64,000 bases of DNA from an uncultured virus (IMG/VR IMGVR_UViG_3300037295_000360) (Duplodnaviria > Heunggongvirae > Uroviricota > Caudoviricetes). The stretch spans positions 1 through 64,000 of IMG/VR virus record IMGVR_UViG_3300037295_000360. The stretch is one strand, 5' to 3'. Positions 3,684 to 23,300 of the stretch are shown piece by piece. A program made the position numbers and the translations under genes. The notes beneath the pieces are model-generated. The model saw only the letters and a list, made by a program, of their open reading frames with translations, was not told the DNA's origin and searched no databases. Every line of letters begins with the position of its first letter. Positions within the stretch are counted from its first letter, which is position 1.

Positions 3684-4226
3684 ATGAAAAAAATAAAATT
3701 ATTTGAGGAATTTATGAACGAGGCTAAAAAACAAACATATAGCGCTAATTGTGCAATGTTATACTTTGACTTTCCAAAAATGGCACAAATTCATAAAGAA
3801 ATAATAGCGTCTGATCTATTTGAATCCGATGAAGGAGGAGGTCATGGTCTAGAAACCGAATCACATTGTACTCTATTATATGGACTGAATGCAGATGTAT
3901 CATTAAATACTGTTAAAGTAAAATTACAAGGGTTTGACTTTGGTAAATGTATCGCACATAACATTTCATTATTTGAAAACAAAGAGTTTGATGTACTTAA
4001 ATTTGATATTAAGGGAGATAATTTACATGCCGCCAATAAATCTTTATGTGAACTTCCATATAAAACAGACTATCCTGATTATCATCCTCATATGACTGTT
4101 GCATATTTAAAATCAGGTATGGGAAAAAAATACGTAGAAATGTTTAATACGAATGAACATGTCTTAATTCCATCACATATTGTTTATTCAATGACAGATG
4201 GTAGTAAAAATACTATTAATATTTAA
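3684..4226 (+). CDS. 2H phosphoesterase, T4 gp57B/Acb1-like (candidate anti-CBASS nuclease), KLFEEF family
   Basis: Two HxT motifs: SHCTLLYG and DYPDYHPHMTVAY. Confidence 0.7.
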   Translation: MKKIKLFEEFMNEAKKQTYSANCAMLYFDFPKMAQIHKEIIASDLFESDEGGGHGLETESHCTLLYGLNADVSLNTVKVKLQGFDFGKCIAHNISLFENKEFDVLKFDIKGDNLHAANKSLCELPYKTDYPDYHPHMTVAYLKSGMGKKYVEMFNTNEHVLIPSHIVYSMTDGSKNTINI

Positions 4227-9291: not shown

Positions 9292-9361
9292 GTTTCGTTT
9301 AATCTTGGAGGTTGGATAGGTTGCAACCCTATCAGAAGTGGTTCGATTCCACTACGAAACT
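9292..9361 (+). tRNA. tRNA-Cys(GCA), atypical D arm
   Basis: GTTTCGT/ACGAAAC acceptor, TTGCAAC loop, U73. Confidence 0.8.
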
Positions 9362-9530
9362 CTAATAACTTTAACAAAACATTAACACTAGAGGTTTTTA
9401 TAAGTCAAATAAAATGATTATATTTACTTATAATTAAAAACAATAGAATATGTGTGAAAAGGAAAGATTATTAAGAGAATTGTTTAAGACCGTAGAAAAG
9501 AAAACAAACGGTTGGAAATGTAAAATGGAA

Positions 9531-9635
9531 ACTTTAACAAAAAATTAACACTTAAAGTTTTCAAGATTAAAAGATTTTGATTATATTTACTTATAATTAA
9601 AAACAAACGTTAATTGACATATTGATAATACTAAA
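9531..9635 (+). promoter_or_regulatory. ~105-bp tRNA promoter/leader repeat (also 10540-10644 and 11841-11945; variant 6971-7048)
   Basis: Near-identical copies ending GTTAATTGACATATTGATAATACTAAA just before a tRNA. Confidence 0.85.
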
Positions 9636-9636
9636 C

Positions 9637-9709
9637 GCGAATATCGTATAATGGCTTATTACTCTAGACTTCCAATCTGGAAATGACAGTTCGATCCTGT
9701 CTATTCGCT
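9637..9709 (+). tRNA. tRNA-Gly(TCC)
   Basis: Cloverleaf, CTTCCAA loop. Confidence 0.9.
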
Positions 9710-9738
9710 CCGGGAACCTTTTTAACATTTCCATATAT

Positions 9739-10422
9739 ATGGAAAAGTTAATTAAGGTTAAACAAGCCTCAAGGCGAAAATATCATTACATCTATAAAAC
9801 TACATGTATCATTACTGAAAGGTTTTATATTGGAATGCACTCAACTGATAACCTAGAAGATGGTTATGTTGGTTCAGGTAAAAGATTATGGCATTCAATA
9901 AACAAACATGGCAAACAAAATCATGTCACTGCGATAATTGAATATTTAAAAGATAGAGATTCTTTAAAAGCTAGAGAAAAAGAAATGGTTAATGAAGATC
10001 TATTAAAGGATCCTCAATGCATGAATTTAGCGTTAGGCGGAGAAGGTGGTGCGGGTTGCATGACTAAAGAACAATTATCTAAAGGAGGTAAAAAAATGAA
10101 TGAACTAAATTGGACTGATCCTGAATTTATAAAACGGAATGCAGAAAGAAATAAAATAAGGTTAAAAGAATTATGGAAAGATCCAGAATATAGAAACAAA
10201 ATGTTAGTTTTAATAAATTGGACTGGTAGAAAACATAAAGAAGATTCTATAAATAAAATGAAAATGTCTAAGATCGATCATGGAAAAGGATCTTTAAACT
10301 CACAATATAATACATGTTGGATTTATAAAATTACAGATGAAAAATCTATTAAAATAAAAAATAATGAAATTCAATCATATTTAGATAATGGTTGGATTGA
10401 AGGTAGGAAGATGAAATGGTAA
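9739..10422 (+). CDS. GIY-YIG homing endonuclease (Seg-like, NUMOD3-type repeat) inside the tRNA array
   Basis: YIYKTT..FYIGMH..Y.GSG; GRKHKEDSINKM. Confidence 0.85.
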   Translation: MEKLIKVKQASRRKYHYIYKTTCIITERFYIGMHSTDNLEDGYVGSGKRLWHSINKHGKQNHVTAIIEYLKDRDSLKAREKEMVNEDLLKDPQCMNLALGGEGGAGCMTKEQLSKGGKKMNELNWTDPEFIKRNAERNKIRLKELWKDPEYRNKMLVLINWTGRKHKEDSINKMKMSKIDHGKGSLNSQYNTCWIYKITDEKSIKIKNNEIQSYLDNGWIEGRKMKW

Positions 10423-10468
10423 AACATTAAATAGCAATTGACTCCTTTTATTAGAGAAAGAATTACAA

Positions 10469-10540
10469 TATCTTATAGTGTAACGGTTAGCACGAATCAC
10501 TTTGAATGATTCAGTTTAGGTTCGAATCCTAATAAGATAA
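10469..10540 (+). tRNA. tRNA-Gln(TTG)
   Basis: Cloverleaf, CTTTGAA loop. Confidence 0.85.
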
Positions 10541-10644
10541 CTTTAACAAAACTTTAACACTTAAAGTTTTCAAGATTAAAAGATTTTGATTATATTTACT
10601 TATAATTAAAAACAAACGTTAATTGACATATTGATAATACTAAA

Positions 10645-10720
10645 CGAGAGGTATAGGAGTCAGGTTTATCTAGCTGCACTTGGACTGCAGATCACGTGGG
10701 TTCGAATCCCACTCTCTCGA
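10645..10720 (+). tRNA. tRNA-Pro(TGG)
   Basis: CTTGGAC loop, C1-G72. Confidence 0.9.
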
Positions 10721-10851
10721 CTAAATCTTTAAAGATTACAATACCGCAATGATTGCCGGCTACATGCATTGATCCTTAACCCATATATTCGTTTGGGGTT
10801 CTTTCGAATTGGATAAACCGGACAGTTTTCCTAGGTGATGCTAGGATATTT

Positions 10852-10934
10852 GCTCTTATGGCGGAACAGGTAGACGCACTGGTCTTAGAAACCAACGCTG
10901 TAATGGCATCTCGGTTCGACTCCGAGTAAGAGTA
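10852..10934 (+). tRNA. tRNA-Leu(TAG)
   Basis: CTTAGAA loop, long variable arm. Confidence 0.92.
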
Positions 10935-10966
10935 CTATAATGACTATTAGGAAAGACTAATAATTT

Positions 10967-11040
10967 GCTCTCTACGCATAAATGGTGGTGCGCTGGCTTT
11001 GTAACCCGGAATAGATTCAGTTCGATCCTGAAAGAGAGCT
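10967..11040 (+). tRNA. tRNA-Thr(TGT)
   Basis: GCTCTCT/AGAGAGC acceptor, TTTGTAA loop. Confidence 0.8.
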
Positions 11041-11051
11041 CTAATTTAAAT

Positions 11052-11120
11052 TAGTAATTAGCTTAAGAGATTAAAGCGTAATACGAGATTAAGATATGGA
11101 TTCAAAAAACCATATTACAT
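11052..11120 (+). pseudogene. Degenerate tRNA-like remnant
   Basis: D-arm-like TAGCTTAA..AAGC and a weak T arm; no clean anticodon arm. Confidence 0.35.
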
Positions 11121-11134
11121 AATTTAAATTAATT

Positions 11135-11205
11135 GGCCCGGTCGTCTAAAAGCAGGACATTGTACTTTCAATTCAAAAACCGGAGAGCGTTACTCCGTCG
11201 GGCTA
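11135..11205 (+). tRNA. tRNA-Glu(TTC)
   Basis: CTTTCAA loop; T loop AGCGTTA. Confidence 0.85.
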
Positions 11206-11225
11206 CTAAAAATAAGATTAAATAA

Positions 11226-11298
11226 GGGGTTGTAGCTAAAATGGATTAGCACTTCGTTTGCAACGAAAAGTATGCGGGTTCGAGGCCCGTCAGCTCCA
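11226..11298 (+). tRNA. tRNA-Ala(TGC)
   Basis: G3.U70, TTTGCAA loop. Confidence 0.92.
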
Positions 11299-11389
11299 CA
11301 CTAGTTAAGCAATTGGTCATAAACAGCAATTGTGGATATATATGTTGTTAAGGTCCGCAAAACCCTCTAGCCAACTACTGTTTATATTT

Positions 11390-11460
11390 GGTCCATTAGT
11401 ACAAAGGCAGTATACCTGGTTGTCGCCCAGATGAAAACGGATCGTTACCGTTATGGACCG
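11390..11460 (+). tRNA. tRNA-Asp(GTC)
   Basis: TTGTCGC loop, G73. Confidence 0.88.
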
Positions 11461-11546
11461 CTAAATATTTTCTATTATTGAAAAATAGTTTAAGATAAAG
11501 TTTAAGAGTAATTAACTTAAACCTAAGAACTTTGCAAGGTTCTAGA

Positions 11547-11620
11547 TTGATTATAGTGTATTGGAGCACGGGTCATTTATTGGAAAACAGGAGTAGGGTT
11601 CGAATCCCTTCAAATCAGCA
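11547..11620 (+). pseudogene. Degenerate tRNA
   Basis: D and T arms present (AGGG TTCGAAT CCCT); anticodon arm does not pair. Confidence 0.45.
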
Positions 11621-11625
11621 AATAT

Positions 11626-11700
11626 GGCGGGCGGACCGGTCGGTATCGGAGGTAGTCTCATAAGCTACATTAAATGTAGTTCGACTCTACAGCGTCGCAA
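11626..11700 (+). tRNA. tRNA with CAT anticodon (Met/fMet/Ile2 unresolved)
   Basis: CTCATAA loop, imperfect acceptor stem. Confidence 0.75.
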
Positions 11701-11763
11701 CGATGCAGTTTATATGATTCTCTTTTCATTGAGTTCTCCTCAGAAAAACTCTAAAAAAGAAAT

Positions 11764-11835
11764 GGTCTCGTGGCGCAGCGGTAGCGCAGTTCGCTCATAA
11801 CGAAAAGGTCGCAGGTCCGAATCCTGCCGGGACCA
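11764..11835 (+). tRNA. tRNA with CAT anticodon (Met or Ile2)
   Basis: Canonical cloverleaf, CTCATAA loop. Confidence 0.88.
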
Positions 11836-11946
11836 CTAAAACTTTAACAAAAAATTAACACTTAAAGTTTTCAAGATTAAAAGATTTTGATTATATTTAC
11901 TTATAATTAAAAACAAACGTTAATTGACATATTGATAATACTAAAT

Positions 11947-12031
11947 GGAATTTATCCGGGTGGATGAGGAGCTTGTTTTGAAAACAAGTAACAGGTTATA
12001 CTGTTGTGGGTTCGAATCCCACACCTTCTTC
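11947..12031 (+). tRNA. tRNA-Ser(TGA), imperfect acceptor stem
   Basis: TTTGAAA loop, long variable arm. Confidence 0.75.
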
Positions 12032-12119
12032 AAATAAAATCTTAATTATAAGTATCTCCCAAAACATTCTAAGTTATATTTAAAGGAGAGAGAAGAACTT
12101 AGAGTACTTATAATTACAC

Positions 12120-12190
12120 GCCCTTGATGCTTTAAAGTGAAGCACCTAGCTTTTAACTAGGGGAAGTAGGAGCATTACCTACCAGGGGTA
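12120..12190 (+). tRNA. tRNA-Lys(TTT)
   Basis: CTTTTAA loop; T loop AGCATTA. Confidence 0.85.
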
Positions 12191-12249
12191 CACGGATGAG
12201 ACTGTTACTAATACATAGAGCTACATATTGCTAGCATAGAATTAGATTT

Positions 12250-12320
12250 GCCTCGTTGGCGTAATGGAAGCGTAATTGTTTTACATGCAATTGGCAGTGG
12301 TTCGATTCCACTACGAGGTA
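12250..12320 (+). tRNA. tRNA-Val(TAC)
   Basis: TTTACAT loop. Confidence 0.88.
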
Positions 12321-12418
12321 CAAAAATGGGAATAAACAAACAAATGACTGCAATCCTTATTTTGTTTATAAACATACTATGAAAGTTAAATCTTGCAGGA
12401 AATAACTACTAATAGTTT

Positions 12419-12481
12419 TGCTAATGGTATTCTGGGAATACACCACATAAGTGGAGAGTAGGTTTCGAATCCCTTTGGTAA
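12419..12481 (+). pseudogene. Shortened tRNA-like remnant
   Basis: Mini D and anticodon hairpins plus a TTCGAAT T loop. Confidence 0.35.
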
Positions 12482-12506
12482 TCAAATTTAAGTTTTCTTA
12501 AAAACT

Positions 12507-12587
12507 GGGAACAGAAAGTCGTTTGGATACGGCAGCGAGACTGTAAATCTCGTCCGAAAGGGAGTGGTTCGAGTCCACCCGGTCCCA
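12507..12587 (+). tRNA. tRNA-Tyr(GTA)
   Basis: CTGTAAA loop, variable arm. Confidence 0.88.
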
Positions 12588-12674
12588 CTAAACTTTAACA
12601 TGTTAAAGTTGATTAAAACATAATGTCAACGTATTGGAATTTAAACCCCCGTTAGGCTCTGATATTATGTAATT

Positions 12675-12747
12675 GCGGATTAAGCTAATCTGGTGAAAGC
12701 GCATGGTTGAAGCCCATGAGAGACAGGATCGTAACCTGTAATCCGCA
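12675..12747 (+). tRNA. tRNA-Phe(GAA)
   Basis: TTGAAGC loop. Confidence 0.88.
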
Positions 12748-12800
12748 CAGCGTTAAAGGTAATGCTGAACGTCAAACGACAATCCGGAAAGACGGATAAT

Positions 12801-12872
12801 GGATCGGTAGCTCAGGGGCAGAGCGGATGTTTGTTAGGCATCGGGTCGAGATTTCGAAATTCTCCCGGTCCG
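12801..12872 (+). tRNA. tRNA-Asn(GTT)
   Basis: TTGTTAG loop, G73. Confidence 0.88.
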
Positions 12873-12877
12873 CTAAA

Positions 12878-12958
12878 TTGCAATGGTGGTCGCCATCGGT
12901 CTCATGAGCCGTGTTGGTAGTATATACCTGGTGGAGGTTCGATTCCTCCAATTGCAAC
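12878..12958 (+). tRNA. Atypical CAT tRNA-like RNA (vestigial D arm, long variable arm)
   Basis: TTGCAAT/ATTGCAA acceptor, CTCATGA loop, canonical T arm. Confidence 0.55.
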
Positions 12959-13054
12959 AAAATTGCTAAAAATAAATAAAAAGTGACCTGACGCCAAGAA
13001 ATGACGTCCGCAATAAAACATTCAGTGGGAGTCAACCACATTTAGCGATCAATT

Positions 13055-13194
13055 GCCCGAATAGGTACTAAGGTATATCCTTAGTGGCGAGTGGGCTAAC
13101 GATGGTTTAATATTACTGCCCGATATTCTAGATAAAGCATGGAAAGTGATTAAACATGTGGTTAGCAGGGTTGGTTCGATTCCATCTTTGGGCA
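13055..13194 (+). ncRNA. 140-nt tRNA-like RNA with greatly extended anticodon arm
   Basis: GCCCGAA/TTTGGGC-A acceptor, TTCGATT T loop, GCTAAC/GTTAGC and GTTTAAT/ATTAAAC stems. Confidence 0.6.
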
Positions 13195-13202
13195 CAAAAA
13201 AT

Positions 13203-13274
13203 TCACCTGTAGTAGAATGGTTAGCACACATCTCTGATAAGGATGAAATGGAAGTTCAATTCTTCCCAGGTGAA
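13203..13274 (+). tRNA. tRNA-Ile(GAT)
   Basis: CTGATAA loop. Confidence 0.85.
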
Positions 13275-13280
13275 CAATAT

Positions 13281-13351
13281 TCGCATGTAGTATAGGGGTT
13301 AGCACGCATCCCTATCGCGATGAAATGGAAGTTCAAATATTCCCATGTGAA
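13281..13351 (+). pseudogene. Diverged tandem duplicate of tRNA-Ile with altered anticodon loop
   Basis: Colinear with 13203-13274; loop region CCTATCGC. Confidence 0.55.
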
Positions 13352-13358
13352 TAATAAT

Positions 13359-13441
13359 AGAGAGTAAACTAGAATGGTTCTAGCACTGTTTGCTAAACAG
13401 TTGGTCCGAATTCGGATGGGGATCGTAACCTCTTCTCTCTA
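13359..13441 (+). tRNA. tRNA-Ser(GCT)
   Basis: TTGCTAA loop, variable arm. Confidence 0.85.
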
Positions 13442-13573
13442 CTAAGTACCTGTAAAGCGTTAGAGAATTGGTGCACCAATATATTATGTAGAATGGCCAT
13501 TTTATTATAGTAACGTTGTCTTAGGTTGATCAAGTTCGAATCTTGATAGACAAACTTAATACGATACTTAAAT

Positions 13574-13642
13574 TGCGATTTGATCTAGGATCGAGAATAT
13601 CTCATAAGTATTTTCAGACAGGAGCGTAACCTGTAATCGCAA
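13574..13642 (+). tRNA. tRNA with CAT anticodon, short D arm
   Basis: TGCGATT/AATCGCA acceptor, CTCATAA loop. Confidence 0.7.
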
Positions 13643-13668
13643 CGAAGATTAGTTACTAATCTCCATAT

Positions 13669-13741
13669 GGTGTTTGAAGCTTTTTAGTGAAGCGCAAGAC
13701 TGTGAATCTTGAGAAGACGGGGCAGTACCGTCCTAACACCC
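13669..13741 (+). tRNA. tRNA-His(GTG)
   Basis: G-1/C73, CTGTGAA loop. Confidence 0.85.
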
Positions 13742-13964
13742 GACATCTCCAAAATGGAGAATGACTTGGTAATGAATTTATTTCAAACAAACTCAATACC
13801 TTAAGTTGAGCTGCTAATCTACGGGATTAGTTATTAAAAATAAAAATAGTAGTGAAGCTGTATTTATATTACTTTATTCTCGCTGATTGTTGAAAAGGCG
13901 TTAGGAGATTCAGATGAGTTAGTAATATCACAGAATGCCTGAAAGACCCGAAACTATTTTAAAC

Positions 13965-14046
13965 TCCCTTTTGATGGAACAGTAGACATGTCAGACTTAA
14001 AATCTGGTGCCTTTATGGTGTGCGAGTGCAACTCTCGTAAGGGGAA
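13965..14046 (+). tRNA. tRNA-Leu(TAA)
   Basis: CTTAAAA loop, variable arm. Confidence 0.85.
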
Positions 14047-14052
14047 CTATAT

Positions 14053-14127
14053 AATCCTATAGCTTAATCGGAAAAGAGCGCTGTGCTACGAACGCAGAGG
14101 ATATAGGTTCGAGTCCTATTGGGATTT
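14053..14127 (+). tRNA. tRNA-Arg(ACG)
   Basis: CTACGAA loop. Confidence 0.9.
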
Positions 14128-14144
14128 CAAATATTAATTGTTGA

Positions 14145-14360
14145 AGTTTATGGACGTTTTGCAAGACTCGAGTTCGACTCTCGACATCTCCACTAAATTA
14201 GAAGTAATATAAGGGGATGACTGGTTTTGATTGCAATATAGGATATAAGACGAGATTGATATCAATGCAAACGACAAATTTGCCTTAGCAGCGTAGTTGC
14301 TGTTAGGTATTAACTTCCAGAGAGGTTATTTATCTACGTCACCTGAAACGAAATTCAGGA
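14145..14360 (+). ncRNA. ssrA: Circularly permuted (two-piece) tmRNA; tag ANDKFALAA at 14267-14296; outer ends approximate
   Basis: 3' half (T arm plus CATCTCC-A, ending 14192) precedes 5' half GGGGATG (14213); G3.U; TTGCAA/TTGCAA helix; tag ORF with stop hairpin. Confidence 0.88.
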
Positions 14361-14364
14361 ATTT

Positions 14365-14436
14365 GCCTCTATAGTTTAATTGGAAAAACGGATCTCTTCT
14401 AAAGATCAAACATGGGTTCGACTCCCGTTAGAGGTT
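14365..14436 (+). tRNA. tRNA-Arg(TCT)
   Basis: CTTCTAA loop. Confidence 0.9.
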
Positions 14437-14511
14437 CTAATATTAAAGAAACAGAGTAACATTTAGACAACCATTATATAGTAGAATTTAACTTAGACAT
14501 TTTCTTTAAAT

Positions 14512-14582
14512 ACTTCTCACAGGCAAGGTGCCGGTATGGTCTCCAAAACTACTACGGCTAGGTTCGATTCCTAGGGGTCGTG
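14512..14582 (+). tRNA. tRNA-Trp(CCA), imperfect acceptor stem
   Basis: CTCCAAA loop, good T arm. Confidence 0.7.
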
Positions 14583-14584
14583 CA

Positions 14585-14650
14585 ACTTTAACAAAGATTT
14601 AACACTCCGTATTTTTTAATGCGGAGTTTTTTGTTTAGATTTACATATAA
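14585..14650 (+). promoter_or_regulatory. Representative terminator+promoter cassette (about 25 related copies in the window)
   Basis: TTTAACA-N4-TTAACAC, hairpin ACTCCGTATT..AATGCGGAGT-T6, TTAGATTTACATATA. Confidence 0.85.
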
Positions 14651-21010: not shown

Positions 21011-21595
21011 ATGAGTCAAACAGAATCCCACCTAGGTAAATTATACCCAGTAAAAATGGAGTCTTCATTAGAAGAAACTTGTAAAAAAATTGCTAAAAGG
21101 CATAATATCGAATTAGGAGAGGATTGGCAAGAAGACTTCAGAGAAAACTTTAATGAATATGAACATCAAAACAAAAGAGTAGATGAGGAATATTTTATTC
21201 ATGGCGAAACACTTTATAGAGTTATAAATCATGAAGAATCAAGTGATGACGATTGTTTTATGAAACTTGGTAGGAATAGTGATGGTTCAATTTCATTCAC
21301 AGGACAATTCTATAATAGTGCAACATGTTTTTCTGAGATGCTAGAAGAGGCGCTTGACAATTTAAAGCCTTCATATAATGAGCAATTTAGAGATGCCATT
21401 AAAAAAATACTTGAAGATAAAACTATTAAACCACCAGTATCTGTTCCATCGGCTTGTTTATTATTAGCACAACATGTTGGATTAGATGAATCTATTGAAT
21501 TAATAGAAGGCGTGATTAAAGAAAACAAAGATAATATTTTTAAATCTTTGGCATATGAGACCGCACTAGATTATATTAAAAACGAATTAAAATAA
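21011..21595 (+). CDS. Hypothetical protein
   Basis: Long ORF. Confidence 0.6.
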   Translation: MSQTESHLGKLYPVKMESSLEETCKKIAKRHNIELGEDWQEDFRENFNEYEHQNKRVDEEYFIHGETLYRVINHEESSDDDCFMKLGRNSDGSISFTGQFYNSATCFSEMLEEALDNLKPSYNEQFRDAIKKILEDKTIKPPVSVPSACLLLAQHVGLDESIELIEGVIKENKDNIFKSLAYETALDYIKNELK

Positions 21596-22089
21596 TGAAA
21601 GTAATATTCCTGGATTTTGACGGTGTACTTAATGTAATTCCACAGGATCATGATCAATATGGCGGTATTTTCCATCAGAATTTAGTAGAAAACCTAGGTA
21701 GAATCATAGAAGTAACTAGCGCTAAATTAATTATAAGTTCTTCTTGGAGGCATATGGGTTTGGCAATGTTACGTATGATGTGGGAACACCGAGGTTATCC
21801 TGGTGAAATTATAGGAATTACTCCAGATTTATGGAGAAGAGTTAAAGACGAAGAATCTCATGAAAGTTTACAAAGAGGTGATGAAATTCAAGTAGTTCTT
21901 AATTTACATCCAGAAATAGAAAATTATGTTATTTTAGATGATGACCAGGATATGTTAAAAAGCCAATTAGGAAATTTCGTATGTTGCTCTAATAACATTA
22001 ATCACCCCGATTGTATCGATATTGGATATGGACTAACTAATGAATGTGCTAATAAAGCAATAAGAATTTTAAATAAACGTATTCATTAA
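21595..22089 (+). CDS. HAD phosphatase (Swiss-Army-knife RNA-repair type)
   Basis: IFLDFDGVLN, ISSSWR, RGDEI, VILDD. Confidence 0.85.
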   Translation: MKVIFLDFDGVLNVIPQDHDQYGGIFHQNLVENLGRIIEVTSAKLIISSSWRHMGLAMLRMMWEHRGYPGEIIGITPDLWRRVKDEESHESLQRGDEIQVVLNLHPEIENYVILDDDQDMLKSQLGNFVCCSNNINHPDCIDIGYGLTNECANKAIRILNKRIH

Positions 22090-22712: not shown

Positions 22713-23300
22713 ATGAAAATAATATTCTTAGACAATGATGGCGTAATTTGCCTTGATAATAATTGGGGCGGGAGAACTCGAAAATGGAATGAATGGATTA
22801 AGAAACATCCGGAATCTTTGTCATATAAAGATTGTGATGTATTTCATCGTTTTGATAACTTTGATAAAAAGGCTGTTAATGTTTTAAATCAAATTTTAGA
22901 AGAGACAGGAGCAGAAATTGTTGTTTCTTCTGATTGGAAGAAACATGCATCATTAAATGAACTAGGTGATTATTACATATCACAGGGAATCTCTAAAAGA
23001 CCAATTGCAATTACTCCTATTTTTATAGGATGCGATAAACATGATGGGTTTGAATGGAGTTATTGTGATCAATATGAGCAACAAAGATGTTTAGAGATTA
23101 TGCAATATGTAAAGGACAATCCATCAATAACACATTGGGTTGCAGTAGATGATCTGGTAATGCAAAGGGAAGTTACTAATAAACATAATGGAGATCAATC
23201 GAGAGTTTGGGGTTTAGATAATTTTGTATGGACACCAAAGATGAGCGAAGGTATTAAACAAACTGGCATCAAGCAAAAAATATTAAACCTTTTAAGTTAA
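22713..23300 (+). CDS. HAD phosphatase (Swiss-Army-knife type), second paralog
   Basis: IFLDNDGVI, VSSDW, WVAVDD. Confidence 0.82.
   Translation: MKIIFLDNDGVICLDNNWGGRTRKWNEWIKKHPESLSYKDCDVFHRFDNFDKKAVNVLNQILEETGAEIVVSSDWKKHASLNELGDYYISQGISKRPIAITPIFIGCDKHDGFEWSYCDQYEQQRCLEIMQYVKDNPSITHWVAVDDLVMQREVTNKHNGDQSRVWGLDNFVWTPKMSEGIKQTGIKQKILNLLS

Follow-up and report, generated by a model that had tools for sequence, protein, structure and literature searches.

We studied a 64,000-nucleotide (nt) stretch of viral DNA (the window; positions 1-64,000 of the 170,013-bp IMG/VR virus record IMGVR_UViG_3300037295_000360) and conclude, on the evidence of sequence comparison, that the segment at 14129-14364 on its plus strand is a real, conserved, circularly permuted, and strongly reduced phage gene for transfer-messenger RNA (tmRNA; ssrA), with a likely role in ribosome rescue. 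The best overall explanation, which we consider probable, is that of a genuine permuted tmRNA gene that lies in a phage tRNA array, works as a two-piece rescue RNA, and is of Bacteroidota-type origin. An original prediction, made from the letters of the window, had placed a phage-encoded, circularly permuted, and highly reduced tmRNA at 14145-14360. This was the right place but slightly narrow, as the element fills the entire gap between tRNA-Arg(ACG) and tRNA-Arg(UCU); the acceptor strands, the spacer, the G3.U pair, and the reading frame that the prediction had named are all present where it had put them. Its phage origin is borne out by the virus record, which carries a tail-fibre-like gene, lysins, an Acb1-like gene, an RNA ligase, and a large tRNA array. 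No open reading frame (ORF) of 80 amino acids or more overlaps the element.

Upon searching the whole window against 4227 Rfam families (Rfam 15), the permuted tmRNA model RF04321 matched at 14146-14296 (+) with 54.8 bits (gathering score 47; E = 6.1e-08), all of its model positions (1-213 of 213) being covered, and this was the single RF04321 match in the whole 170,013-bp record. The models alpha_tmRNA (RF01849) and cyano_tmRNA (RF01851) gave no match to the element at E up to 1, and beta_tmRNA (RF01850) gave 35 bits against a gathering score of 84, over model positions 77-166 only. The original prediction had proposed a check with Rfam's permuted-tmRNA models, which the element thus passed, and one with ARAGORN, which turned out in part: at default settings ARAGORN reported 15 tRNAs in the window and no tmRNA, but with the threshold lowered to -ps80 it called the element with the same tag, ANDKFALAA.

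The flanking tRNAs, which end at 14128 and start at 14365, cap the length of the acceptor piece at 64 nt (without the added CCA) and that of the coding piece at 152 nt. The parts of the element and its two neighbors are as follows.

14053-14128 (+): tRNA-Arg(ACG), called by ARAGORN and by the Rfam tRNA model (59.2 bits), directly upstream in three of three close relatives
14129-14192 (+): acceptor piece, 64 nt before CCA addition, from the RF04321 alignment, the RNAalifold consensus, and pair counts
14131-14139, 14147-14155, and 14159-14164 (+): helix-2 strands of the acceptor piece (P2c, P2b, and P2a, respectively)
14165-14167 (+): GAC, between P2a and the T-arm
14168-14184 (+): T-arm, with a tRNA-type T-loop
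14185-14191 (+): acceptor 3' strand, followed by the discriminator A at 14192; of the CCA, the first C only is encoded
14193-14212 (+): spacer of 20 nt, A+U-rich, variable in 12 of 18 gap-free columns among four homologues and differing in length, expected to be discarded during maturation
14213-14364 (+): coding piece, at most 152 nt, its 3' limit being set by the tRNA that starts at 14365
14213-14219 (+): acceptor 5' strand, pairing with 14185-14191, with G14215.U14189 as the third pair (G3.U)
14220-14230 (+): D-loop analogue, lacking a D-stem and of the same sequence as in Flavobacterium tmRNA
14231-14236, 14242-14249, and 14254-14262 (+): helix-2 strands of the coding piece (P2a, P2b, and P2c, respectively)
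14267-14296 (+): tag frame, conserved, with the TAG stop at 14294-14296 and the same tag from ARAGORN at -ps80
14281-14309 (+): helix 5, from folds, a hairpin that holds the last tag codons, with the stop codon in its loop
14311-14328 (+): hairpin H6 of 7 pairs with a 4-nt loop, from folds; by inspection (uncounted), relatives show a hairpin of other sequence at this position
14342-14359 (+): 3' hairpin of 6-7 pairs with its loop at 14348-14353, followed by a 5-nt tail (alignment columns 227-233 with 240-246)
14365-14437 (+): tRNA-Arg(UCU), called by ARAGORN and Rfam (63.7 bits), directly downstream in three of three close relatives

Relatives of the element were collected with sequence patterns. 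A general pattern for a permuted tRNA-like domain returned 94 stretches in viral contigs, among them a 161-kb contig (L007) with 2 differences to the window in 655 nt, neither of them within the element. When the pattern was narrowed to the D-loop variant of the window, with U at a position that is C in most permuted genes, it returned 80 stretches in metagenome contigs, which held the closest diverged homologues (L219, L221, and L238). In all three, the element likewise fills the gap from tRNA-Arg(ACG) to tRNA-Arg(UCU), has unchanged limits, and passes RF04321 (60-69 bits); ARAGORN either missed the gene in these loci or produced nonsense-tag calls that ran across tRNAs. A scan for the subfamily motif upstream of the tag gave 42 stretches, in which the sole tmRNA was that of the L007 contig. 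The element found no blastn match among 50,697 phage records, and the Flavobacterium phage immuto had no RF04321 match.

We then aligned the window with L219, L221, and L238 (251 alignment columns; 78% mean column identity) and scored the 53 pairs of the RNAalifold consensus against two kinds of controls, namely six in which the 3' partners were slid by 1-3 columns and 500 shuffles. Standard pairs were present in 97.6% of the 211 pair cells (35-47% in the six slid controls), and compensatory changes, that is, changes on both sides, occurred in 20 pairs (0-3 in the slid controls); none of the 500 shuffles reached the observed values. By helix, the counts were:

Acceptor stem: 7 pairs, 2 compensatory; G3.U invariant in four of four
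T-arm: 5 pairs, 4 compensatory; 100% of cells paired
P2a (14159-14164 with 14231-14236): 7 pairs, 5 compensatory; 96.4% of cells paired; one consensus pair has no counterpart in the window
P2b (14147-14155 with 14242-14249): 8 pairs, 3 compensatory; 93.8% of cells paired
P2c (14131-14139 with 14254-14262): 9 pairs, 2 compensatory; 100% of cells paired
Helix 5 core (alignment columns 171-175 with 182-186): 5 pairs, 1 compensatory; all scored cells paired
3' hairpin (14342-14347 with 14354-14359): 7 pairs, 3 compensatory; 96.4% of cells paired

Helix 2, the predicted connection between the two pieces, thus comprises 24 pairs in three segments, of which 10 are compensatory; it begins 2 nt past the upstream tRNA and takes up nearly the whole 5' part of the acceptor piece. 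Covariation across these homologues thus shows how the two pieces pair. The RNAalifold consensus also holds a five-pair hairpin within the tag, conserved in sequence and free of covariation. For a candidate tether of 14153-14157 with 14336-14340, which competes with P2b, 83% of cells pair and no compensatory change was found.

Among the sequencing runs listed for this stretch, none was of RNA. A strain variant, represented by DNA contigs from three runs that are ~94% identical to the window, provided two further compensatory pairs: 14188 C>G together with 14216 G>C turns the acceptor pair 4-69 from G-C into C-G, and 14162 C>T together with 14233 G>A replaces a C-G pair of P2a by U-A. Pairing is also preserved at six positions that changed on one side only (14147, 14152, 14235, 14248, 14258, and 14324); at 14324, G>A converts a G.U pair of H6 into A-U, and H6 is otherwise altered in its loop alone. 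The tag and helix 5 (14267-14309), the T-arm, and the 3' hairpin have no listed change, and the spacer has substitutions and an insertion. One change in the variant, 14153 G>A, breaks a pair of the 14153-14157/14336-14340 tether. The circular permutation is thus carried by the RF04321 match, by the covariation in four homologues, and by the two pairs of the strain variant.

The tag frame itself is secure as judged by its conservation: nine sense codons and TAG, with no indel, are found in four of four homologues, with the tags ANDKFALAA, VNDKFALAA, VNDEFAIAA, and VNGNVAIAA, all of which end in ALAA or AIAA. Variable columns within the tag number 3, 2, and 6 at codon positions 1, 2, and 3, respectively, for a sum of 11 of 30; the helix-2 strand (21 of 32) and the stretch past the stop (27 of 39) vary more. 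Two resume codons in the same frame are candidates. The GCA at 14267 (tag ANDKFALAA) agrees with the Rfam consensus and with ARAGORN, and GAC at 14273 (tag DKFALAA) has the spacing of the GGC resume codon of sister groups, which by inspection of the alignment lies ~11 nt past helix 2. Either codon gives a tag ending in ALAA, like the GENNYALAA of the likely host. The original prediction had located the resume codon 54 nt past the 5' end, the ANDKFALAA frame, and a stop codon in a hairpin, all of which the sequence and the folds reproduce.

A standard tmRNA has its pseudoknot 1 in the interval from helix 2 to the resume codon. This pseudoknot is absent here, because helix 2 ends at 14262, 4 nt before GCA 14267 (10 nt before GAC 14273). 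With at most 64 + 152 nt, compared to 394-398 nt in five Flavobacteriaceae genomes, and with pseudoknot 1 missing, the element is indeed highly reduced, as had been predicted. Downstream of the tag, the consensus and the folds predict hairpins only. In a sister group (16 sequences), an H-type pseudoknot follows the tag, with 93.4% of cells paired (27-41% in slid controls) and 6 of 10 pairs compensatory. The 3' hairpin of the window may be the surviving second stem of this pseudoknot, and a three-pair first stem of 14337-14339 with 14348-14350 is possible, its bases being invariant and hence beyond covariation testing; at most one vestigial pseudoknot would then be left near the 3' end of the coding piece. 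A local hairpin of 14242-14246 with 14259-14263 was considered as a replacement for pseudoknot 1 and rejected, as it paired in 60% of cells and the slid controls in 22-72%.

Based on these data, we propose how the gene might work. The array would be transcribed as a single precursor, from which host tRNA-processing enzymes would make all four ends, given that the gene sits exactly between two tRNA genes. The acceptor piece would receive its 5' end when the 3' end of tRNA-Arg(ACG) is processed, and it would be finished by tRNA-type 3' trimming after A14192 and CCA addition; RNase P would cut before G14213 to start the coding piece and before tRNA-Arg(UCU) to release its 3' end, which the stable hairpin would shield. 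The 7-pair acceptor stem and the three segments of helix 2 would hold the pieces together. Host alanyl-tRNA synthetase (AlaRS) would then charge the RNA via G3.U and A73, host SmpB and EF-Tu would bring it to stalled ribosomes, and translation would resume at GCA 14267 or GAC 14273, adding a short tag that ends in ALAA. Processing, charging, SmpB binding, and tagging of the putative two-piece RNA are steps that we infer by analogy. A terminator scan found no terminator-like site on the plus strand at 14128-14365 and a terminator-like hairpin of 10 pairs followed by a T-run at 14604-14627 (+), which is probably the end of the tRNA/tmRNA transcription unit; as the terminator lies past the array and none lies inside the element, co-transcription with the flanking tRNAs would fit.

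The phage host is probably Flavobacterium, judging from the serine hydroxymethyltransferase (SHMT) of the phage, which shares 74-76% identity with Flavobacterium proteins (of its 594 confirmed matches, the best 80 were all to Bacteroidota); the thymidylate synthase gene is 77% identical at the DNA level to that of Flavobacterium phages. In five of five Flavobacteriaceae genomes, tmRNA was a one-piece RNA (RF00023, 139-148 bits) with the same D-loop analogue as the element and with a tag ending in ALAA (GENNYALAA, GEENYALAA), and RF04321 was passed in none of them. Likewise, none of 151 Bacteroidota genomes passed RF04321; 21 sub-threshold matches were obtained, of which the best 10 were inspected and proved to be 5' halves of one-piece genes. 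This agrees with the statement in the original prediction that ssrA of Bacteroidota is normally one-piece.

The window's gene belongs to a family, which we call UUUUGA-type, marked by U in place of C in the D-loop analogue, and among the 30 loci that resemble the window most, 29 are of this type. Twenty UUUUGA-type loci were examined: RF04321 was passed by 19 (41-73 bits across the 20), and an alpha, beta, or cyano model by none. Examination of 20 loci of the UUUCGA-type revealed 19 permuted genes, all of which passed RF04321 (87-172 bits) and 15 of which passed an alpha, beta, or cyano model. Within the UUUUGA family, at least three parts can be told apart, one of them being the window's subfamily. 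One group, with tags such as GKQVEYAMAA, includes the sister-group locus L079, whose tRNA-like domain shares 61 of 66 positions with the Flavobacterium domain, compared to 44-47 for alpha-, beta-, and cyano-like references, and the shared positions include the P2a sequence, which is not universal. Another group lies on contigs of 89-101 kb, one member of which (L212) is 94% identical over 262 nt to a Bohxovirus (Crassvirales) record. In the search for cultured relatives, a sister-group gene matched only the T-arms of other tmRNAs. The window is placed in the Bacteroidota-derived lineage by its U signature, by a shared layout that lacks pseudoknot 1, and by its overall similarity to the sister groups, and these comparisons suggest that the UUUUGA family most likely derived from a Bacteroidota-type one-piece tmRNA, apart from the two-piece lineages of alphaproteobacteria, betaproteobacteria, and cyanobacteria. 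The original prediction had raised an independent permutation, which is well supported for the sister group, and for the window's subfamily indirectly. We advance it as a serious but tentative possibility, short of a probable one, that phages of Bacteroidota (Crassvirales, marine flavobacterial phages, and this phage) hold a fourth, independently permuted two-piece lineage made from the one-piece tmRNA of their hosts, and that the window's subfamily is its most reduced form, of ~216 nt, naturally without pseudoknot 1, with helix 2 abutting the tag and four ends made by tRNA-processing enzymes.

While examining the family, we made three further observations. In five of five sister-group loci examined (L084, L072, L015, L227, and L220), a complete tRNA-Ala(UGC) lies between the acceptor and coding pieces (oriented positions ~247-321 in four loci and 95-169 in L227); excision of this nested tRNA would create the two inner ends of the tmRNA. 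The Bohxovirus sp. (Crassvirales) record PV686213.1 contains, at 80558-80818, a UUUUGA-type permuted tmRNA with no annotated feature under it. Four other loci (L054, L033, L201, and L216), on viral contigs of ~83-85 kb, hold a one-piece tmRNA of ~311 nt with the UUUUGA D-loop variant right after a tRNA-Ala; they had matched the permuted pattern because the 3' end of a tRNA precedes them. ARAGORN gives the tag AKVVNMTPRAQVLAAAA for L033 and L054, and L201 and L216 were assigned by sequence alone.

Several points weigh against a working two-piece rescue RNA of Bacteroidota type. The host is deduced from one host-like gene. The tRNA-like domain of the window is identical to the host type at 45 of 66 positions and to the other lineages at 38-44 of 66, and so does not discriminate. 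The check for a phage smpB that accompanied the original prediction came out negative: no PF01668 match was found in any of four phage records (the 170-kb record of the window and three related ones, all incomplete; 61-87% complete by CheckV), nor is a CCA-adding enzyme encoded, so that the RNA would have to rely on the host for SmpB, AlaRS, RNase P, the 3' processing enzyme, and CCA addition. Where translation resumes is ambiguous, as the first candidate codon is GCA in the window and GUA in the three relatives. In the strain variant, two otherwise invariant bases of the D-loop analogue (14221 and 14226) are altered, and 14242 G>A disrupts a predicted P2b pair; G14241 could serve instead. The element has neither pseudoknot 1 nor a supported substitute hairpin. 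Finally, the minimum-energy fold (-55.4 kcal/mol) pairs differently and buries the resume region, the comparative structure being 4.7 kcal/mol weaker. We set aside the single-sequence folds, of the precursor and of the two pieces, and gave more weight to the comparative structure.

With these points in mind, we weighed the genuine two-piece rescue RNA against other explanations. One of them concerns its origin: the UUUUGA-type genes could have come from an alphaproteobacterial, betaproteobacterial, or cyanobacterial two-piece tmRNA, the domain of which was later adapted to the SmpB and AlaRS of a new host. The window's own domain, which matches alpha-like references at 43-44 of 66 positions and Flavobacterium at 45 of 66, leaves room for this, the tag read from GCA (ANDKF...) resembles proteobacterial tags, and host switching of a two-piece tmRNA has been proposed for phage Melnitz (excerpts of PMC9004378). 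Against it stand the UUUUGA loci, none of which reached an alpha, beta, or cyano gathering score and whose matches to these models were confined to the tRNA-like domain, unlike the UUUCGA-type; the closeness of L079 to the Flavobacterium domain; and the loci similar to the window, which, its own strain aside, are all UUUUGA-type or variants of it. We regard such an origin as unlikely. Chance resemblance, arising from tRNA-like fragments in a tRNA array, has a precedent in the false permuted-tmRNA calls that such arrays yield (e.g., in Cellulophaga phage phi4:1). Here, however, the match lies between tRNAs without overlapping them, has an E value of 6e-08, and is accompanied by covariation throughout the helices, the intermolecular helix 2 among them, so that chance is extremely improbable and, as far as sequence analysis goes, refuted.

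Other explanations accept a tmRNA-derived gene and question its use. The RNA could be a decoy that is processed and perhaps charged and that mainly titrates host SmpB or blocks host trans-translation, its tag frame being unused. Such a role would agree with the lack of an SmpB gene in the four phage records and of pseudoknot 1, and a decoy of this kind has been proposed for the RNA of mycobacteriophage DS6A, which consists of the tRNA-like domain only; an analogue of such a domain-only phage RNA inhibits tmRNA (excerpts of PMC4131195 and PMC11915505). Yet a decoy would need neither a conserved tag frame nor a stop-codon hairpin, and here the length, frame, stop, and ALAA/AIAA ending of the tag are kept in four of four homologues with an excess of change at third codon positions, the hairpin of the stop codon is likewise conserved, and no strain-variant change is listed in the tag; we consider a decoy quite unlikely. 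Alternatively, the element could be the decaying relic of a once-functional phage tmRNA, now without its pseudoknots and out of use, as its very small size, its rejection by ARAGORN at default settings, an RF04321 score just 7.8 bits over the cut-off, and the two D-loop-analogue changes of the strain variant might indicate. Decay is hard to reconcile with helices that are maintained by compensatory changes across four diverged phages and one strain variant, with a place and limits that are the same in every relative, and with a tag frame that is intact in all of them, which makes a relic very unlikely.

Phage tmRNAs were already known (excerpts of PMC4131195), and three tmRNA gene forms and three bacterial two-piece clades have been described, RF04321 being built from 296 alpha, beta, and cyano sequences (excerpts of PMC11915505). 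A survey of 18,146 phage genomes obtained 53 unique 'permuted' calls from ARAGORN (Buchholz et al., 2022; excerpts of PMC9004378); its Table S1 has three crAssphage rows, which are given without description. Also in that table, the 'permuted tmRNA' of Cellulophaga phage phi4:1 (NC_021788.1) proved to be an ARAGORN artefact (L098, 2428-3089; 662 nt): the call covers tRNA-Tyr, tRNA-Ser, and tRNA-Asn and yields a nonsense tag, and RF04321 does not exceed 15.6 bits anywhere in the record.

Compared to the two-piece tmRNAs of alphaproteobacteria, some betaproteobacteria, and cyanobacteria (RF01849, RF01850, and RF01851; merged in RF04321), the element shares the order of acceptor piece, intervening segment, and coding piece, as well as G3.U, a helix 2 between the pieces, a tag frame that ends in a hairpin, and fewer pseudoknots than one-piece forms have. 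It differs in that it fails all lineage models, has U rather than C in the D-loop analogue, lacks pseudoknot 1, and is borne by a phage whose likely host phylum is one-piece only among the genomes sampled (0 of 151 permuted). Published phage two-piece tmRNAs (OM43 phage Melnitz, pelagiphages, cyanophages, and Caulobacter phages; excerpts of PMC9004378) are likewise permuted ssrA genes of large lytic, often aquatic phages, but these come mostly from phages of two-piece hosts and resemble the host lineage, unlike that of the window. With the one-piece tmRNA of Flavobacteriaceae (394-398 nt), the phage gene has in common an identical D-loop analogue, G3.U, A73, and the ALAA tag end, whereas it is permuted, measures at most 216 nt in two pieces, and has no pseudoknot 1.

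The missing pseudoknot has a counterpart in engineered RNAs. Pseudoknot 1 is required for tagging by wild-type E. coli tmRNA, an E. coli tmRNA with a hairpin in its place still tags, and two-piece forms have fewer pseudoknots (excerpts of PMC3968760). The engineered E. coli tmRNAs (Tanner et al., 2006; Wower et al., 2009; both via PMC3968760, in excerpts) resemble the phage element in having no pseudoknot between helix 2 and the resume codon; in them a stable hairpin replaces pseudoknot 1, whereas in the phage element helix 2 itself reaches the tag region. Mycobacteriophage DS6A also bears a strongly reduced relative of tmRNA, consisting of the tRNA-like domain only (excerpts of PMC4131195 and PMC11915505), which has no tag frame, whereas the window's gene keeps the frame, the stop codon, and helix 5. 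In the literature searched, neither a permuted lineage of Bacteroidota phages nor a natural form without pseudoknot 1 is described (the tmRNA database of 97,179 sequences and the taxonomic tables of PMC11915505, with its 79 phage entries, lay outside this search), and the flavobacterial-phage papers, as excerpted, give tmRNA gene counts only. Phage two-piece tmRNAs as such are already published, and the gene of the window is one of an under-described family in Bacteroidota phages.

What the pseudoknots are for is a long-standing question about tmRNA, and the two-piece form is credited with three independent origins. A natural tag-encoding tmRNA without pseudoknot 1 would provide a minimal substrate for structural and biochemical work on trans-translation, and a helix 2 that reaches the tag region bears on how the resume codon is placed. 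An extra origin of the permutation, in phages of a one-piece phylum, would, if true, imply that this rearrangement comes about easily and repeatedly; why it would recur is suggested by the exact fit of the gene between tRNA genes and by the tRNA nested in the sister-group spacer, in that tRNA-processing enzymes do all of the cutting. Since ARAGORN at default settings misses the genes of the window and of L007 and misses or miscalls those of the three relatives, and since the Bohxovirus copy is unannotated, annotation pipelines and ARAGORN-based surveys would undercount such genes.

The tRNA array that surrounds the element extends over 9292-14437 and comprises the 15 ARAGORN tRNAs and five further Rfam tRNA matches. 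The latter, which score above the Rfam cut-off and escape ARAGORN (31.8-42.9 bits; 11135-11205, 11946-12030, 12120-12190, 13281-13351, and 13965-14046), may be divergent or unusual phage tRNAs. Past the array, at 14510-14585, where L219 and L238 carry a tRNA-Trp(CCA), the window has a T-arm-like stretch and a loop resembling a CCA anticodon loop; neither Rfam nor ARAGORN at -ps80 calls a tRNA there, and the stretch may be a degraded tRNA. The adjoining 14584-14650, which spans the terminator-like hairpin, showed a summed contig depth 7-15 times that of its flanks in metagenome runs, and many different contigs end or start there, with one joint that 'goes back 67'; the stretch resembles an intergenic repeat carried by this phage or by related ones.

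Apart from the tRNA array, the window encodes a DNA ligase, a thymidylate synthase, SHMT, lysins, and a collagen-repeat tail-fibre-like protein. Four ORFs, at 167-1300, 3684-4223, 21595-22086, and 22713-23297, correspond to an RNA ligase (PHA02142-type OB-fold), an Acb1-like (anti-CBASS) protein, and two 'Swiss Army Knife' RNA-repair HAD domains, respectively. Taken together, the tRNA array, the tmRNA, and the RNA-repair and Acb1-like ORFs suggest a phage that is equipped against host attack on the RNAs of translation.

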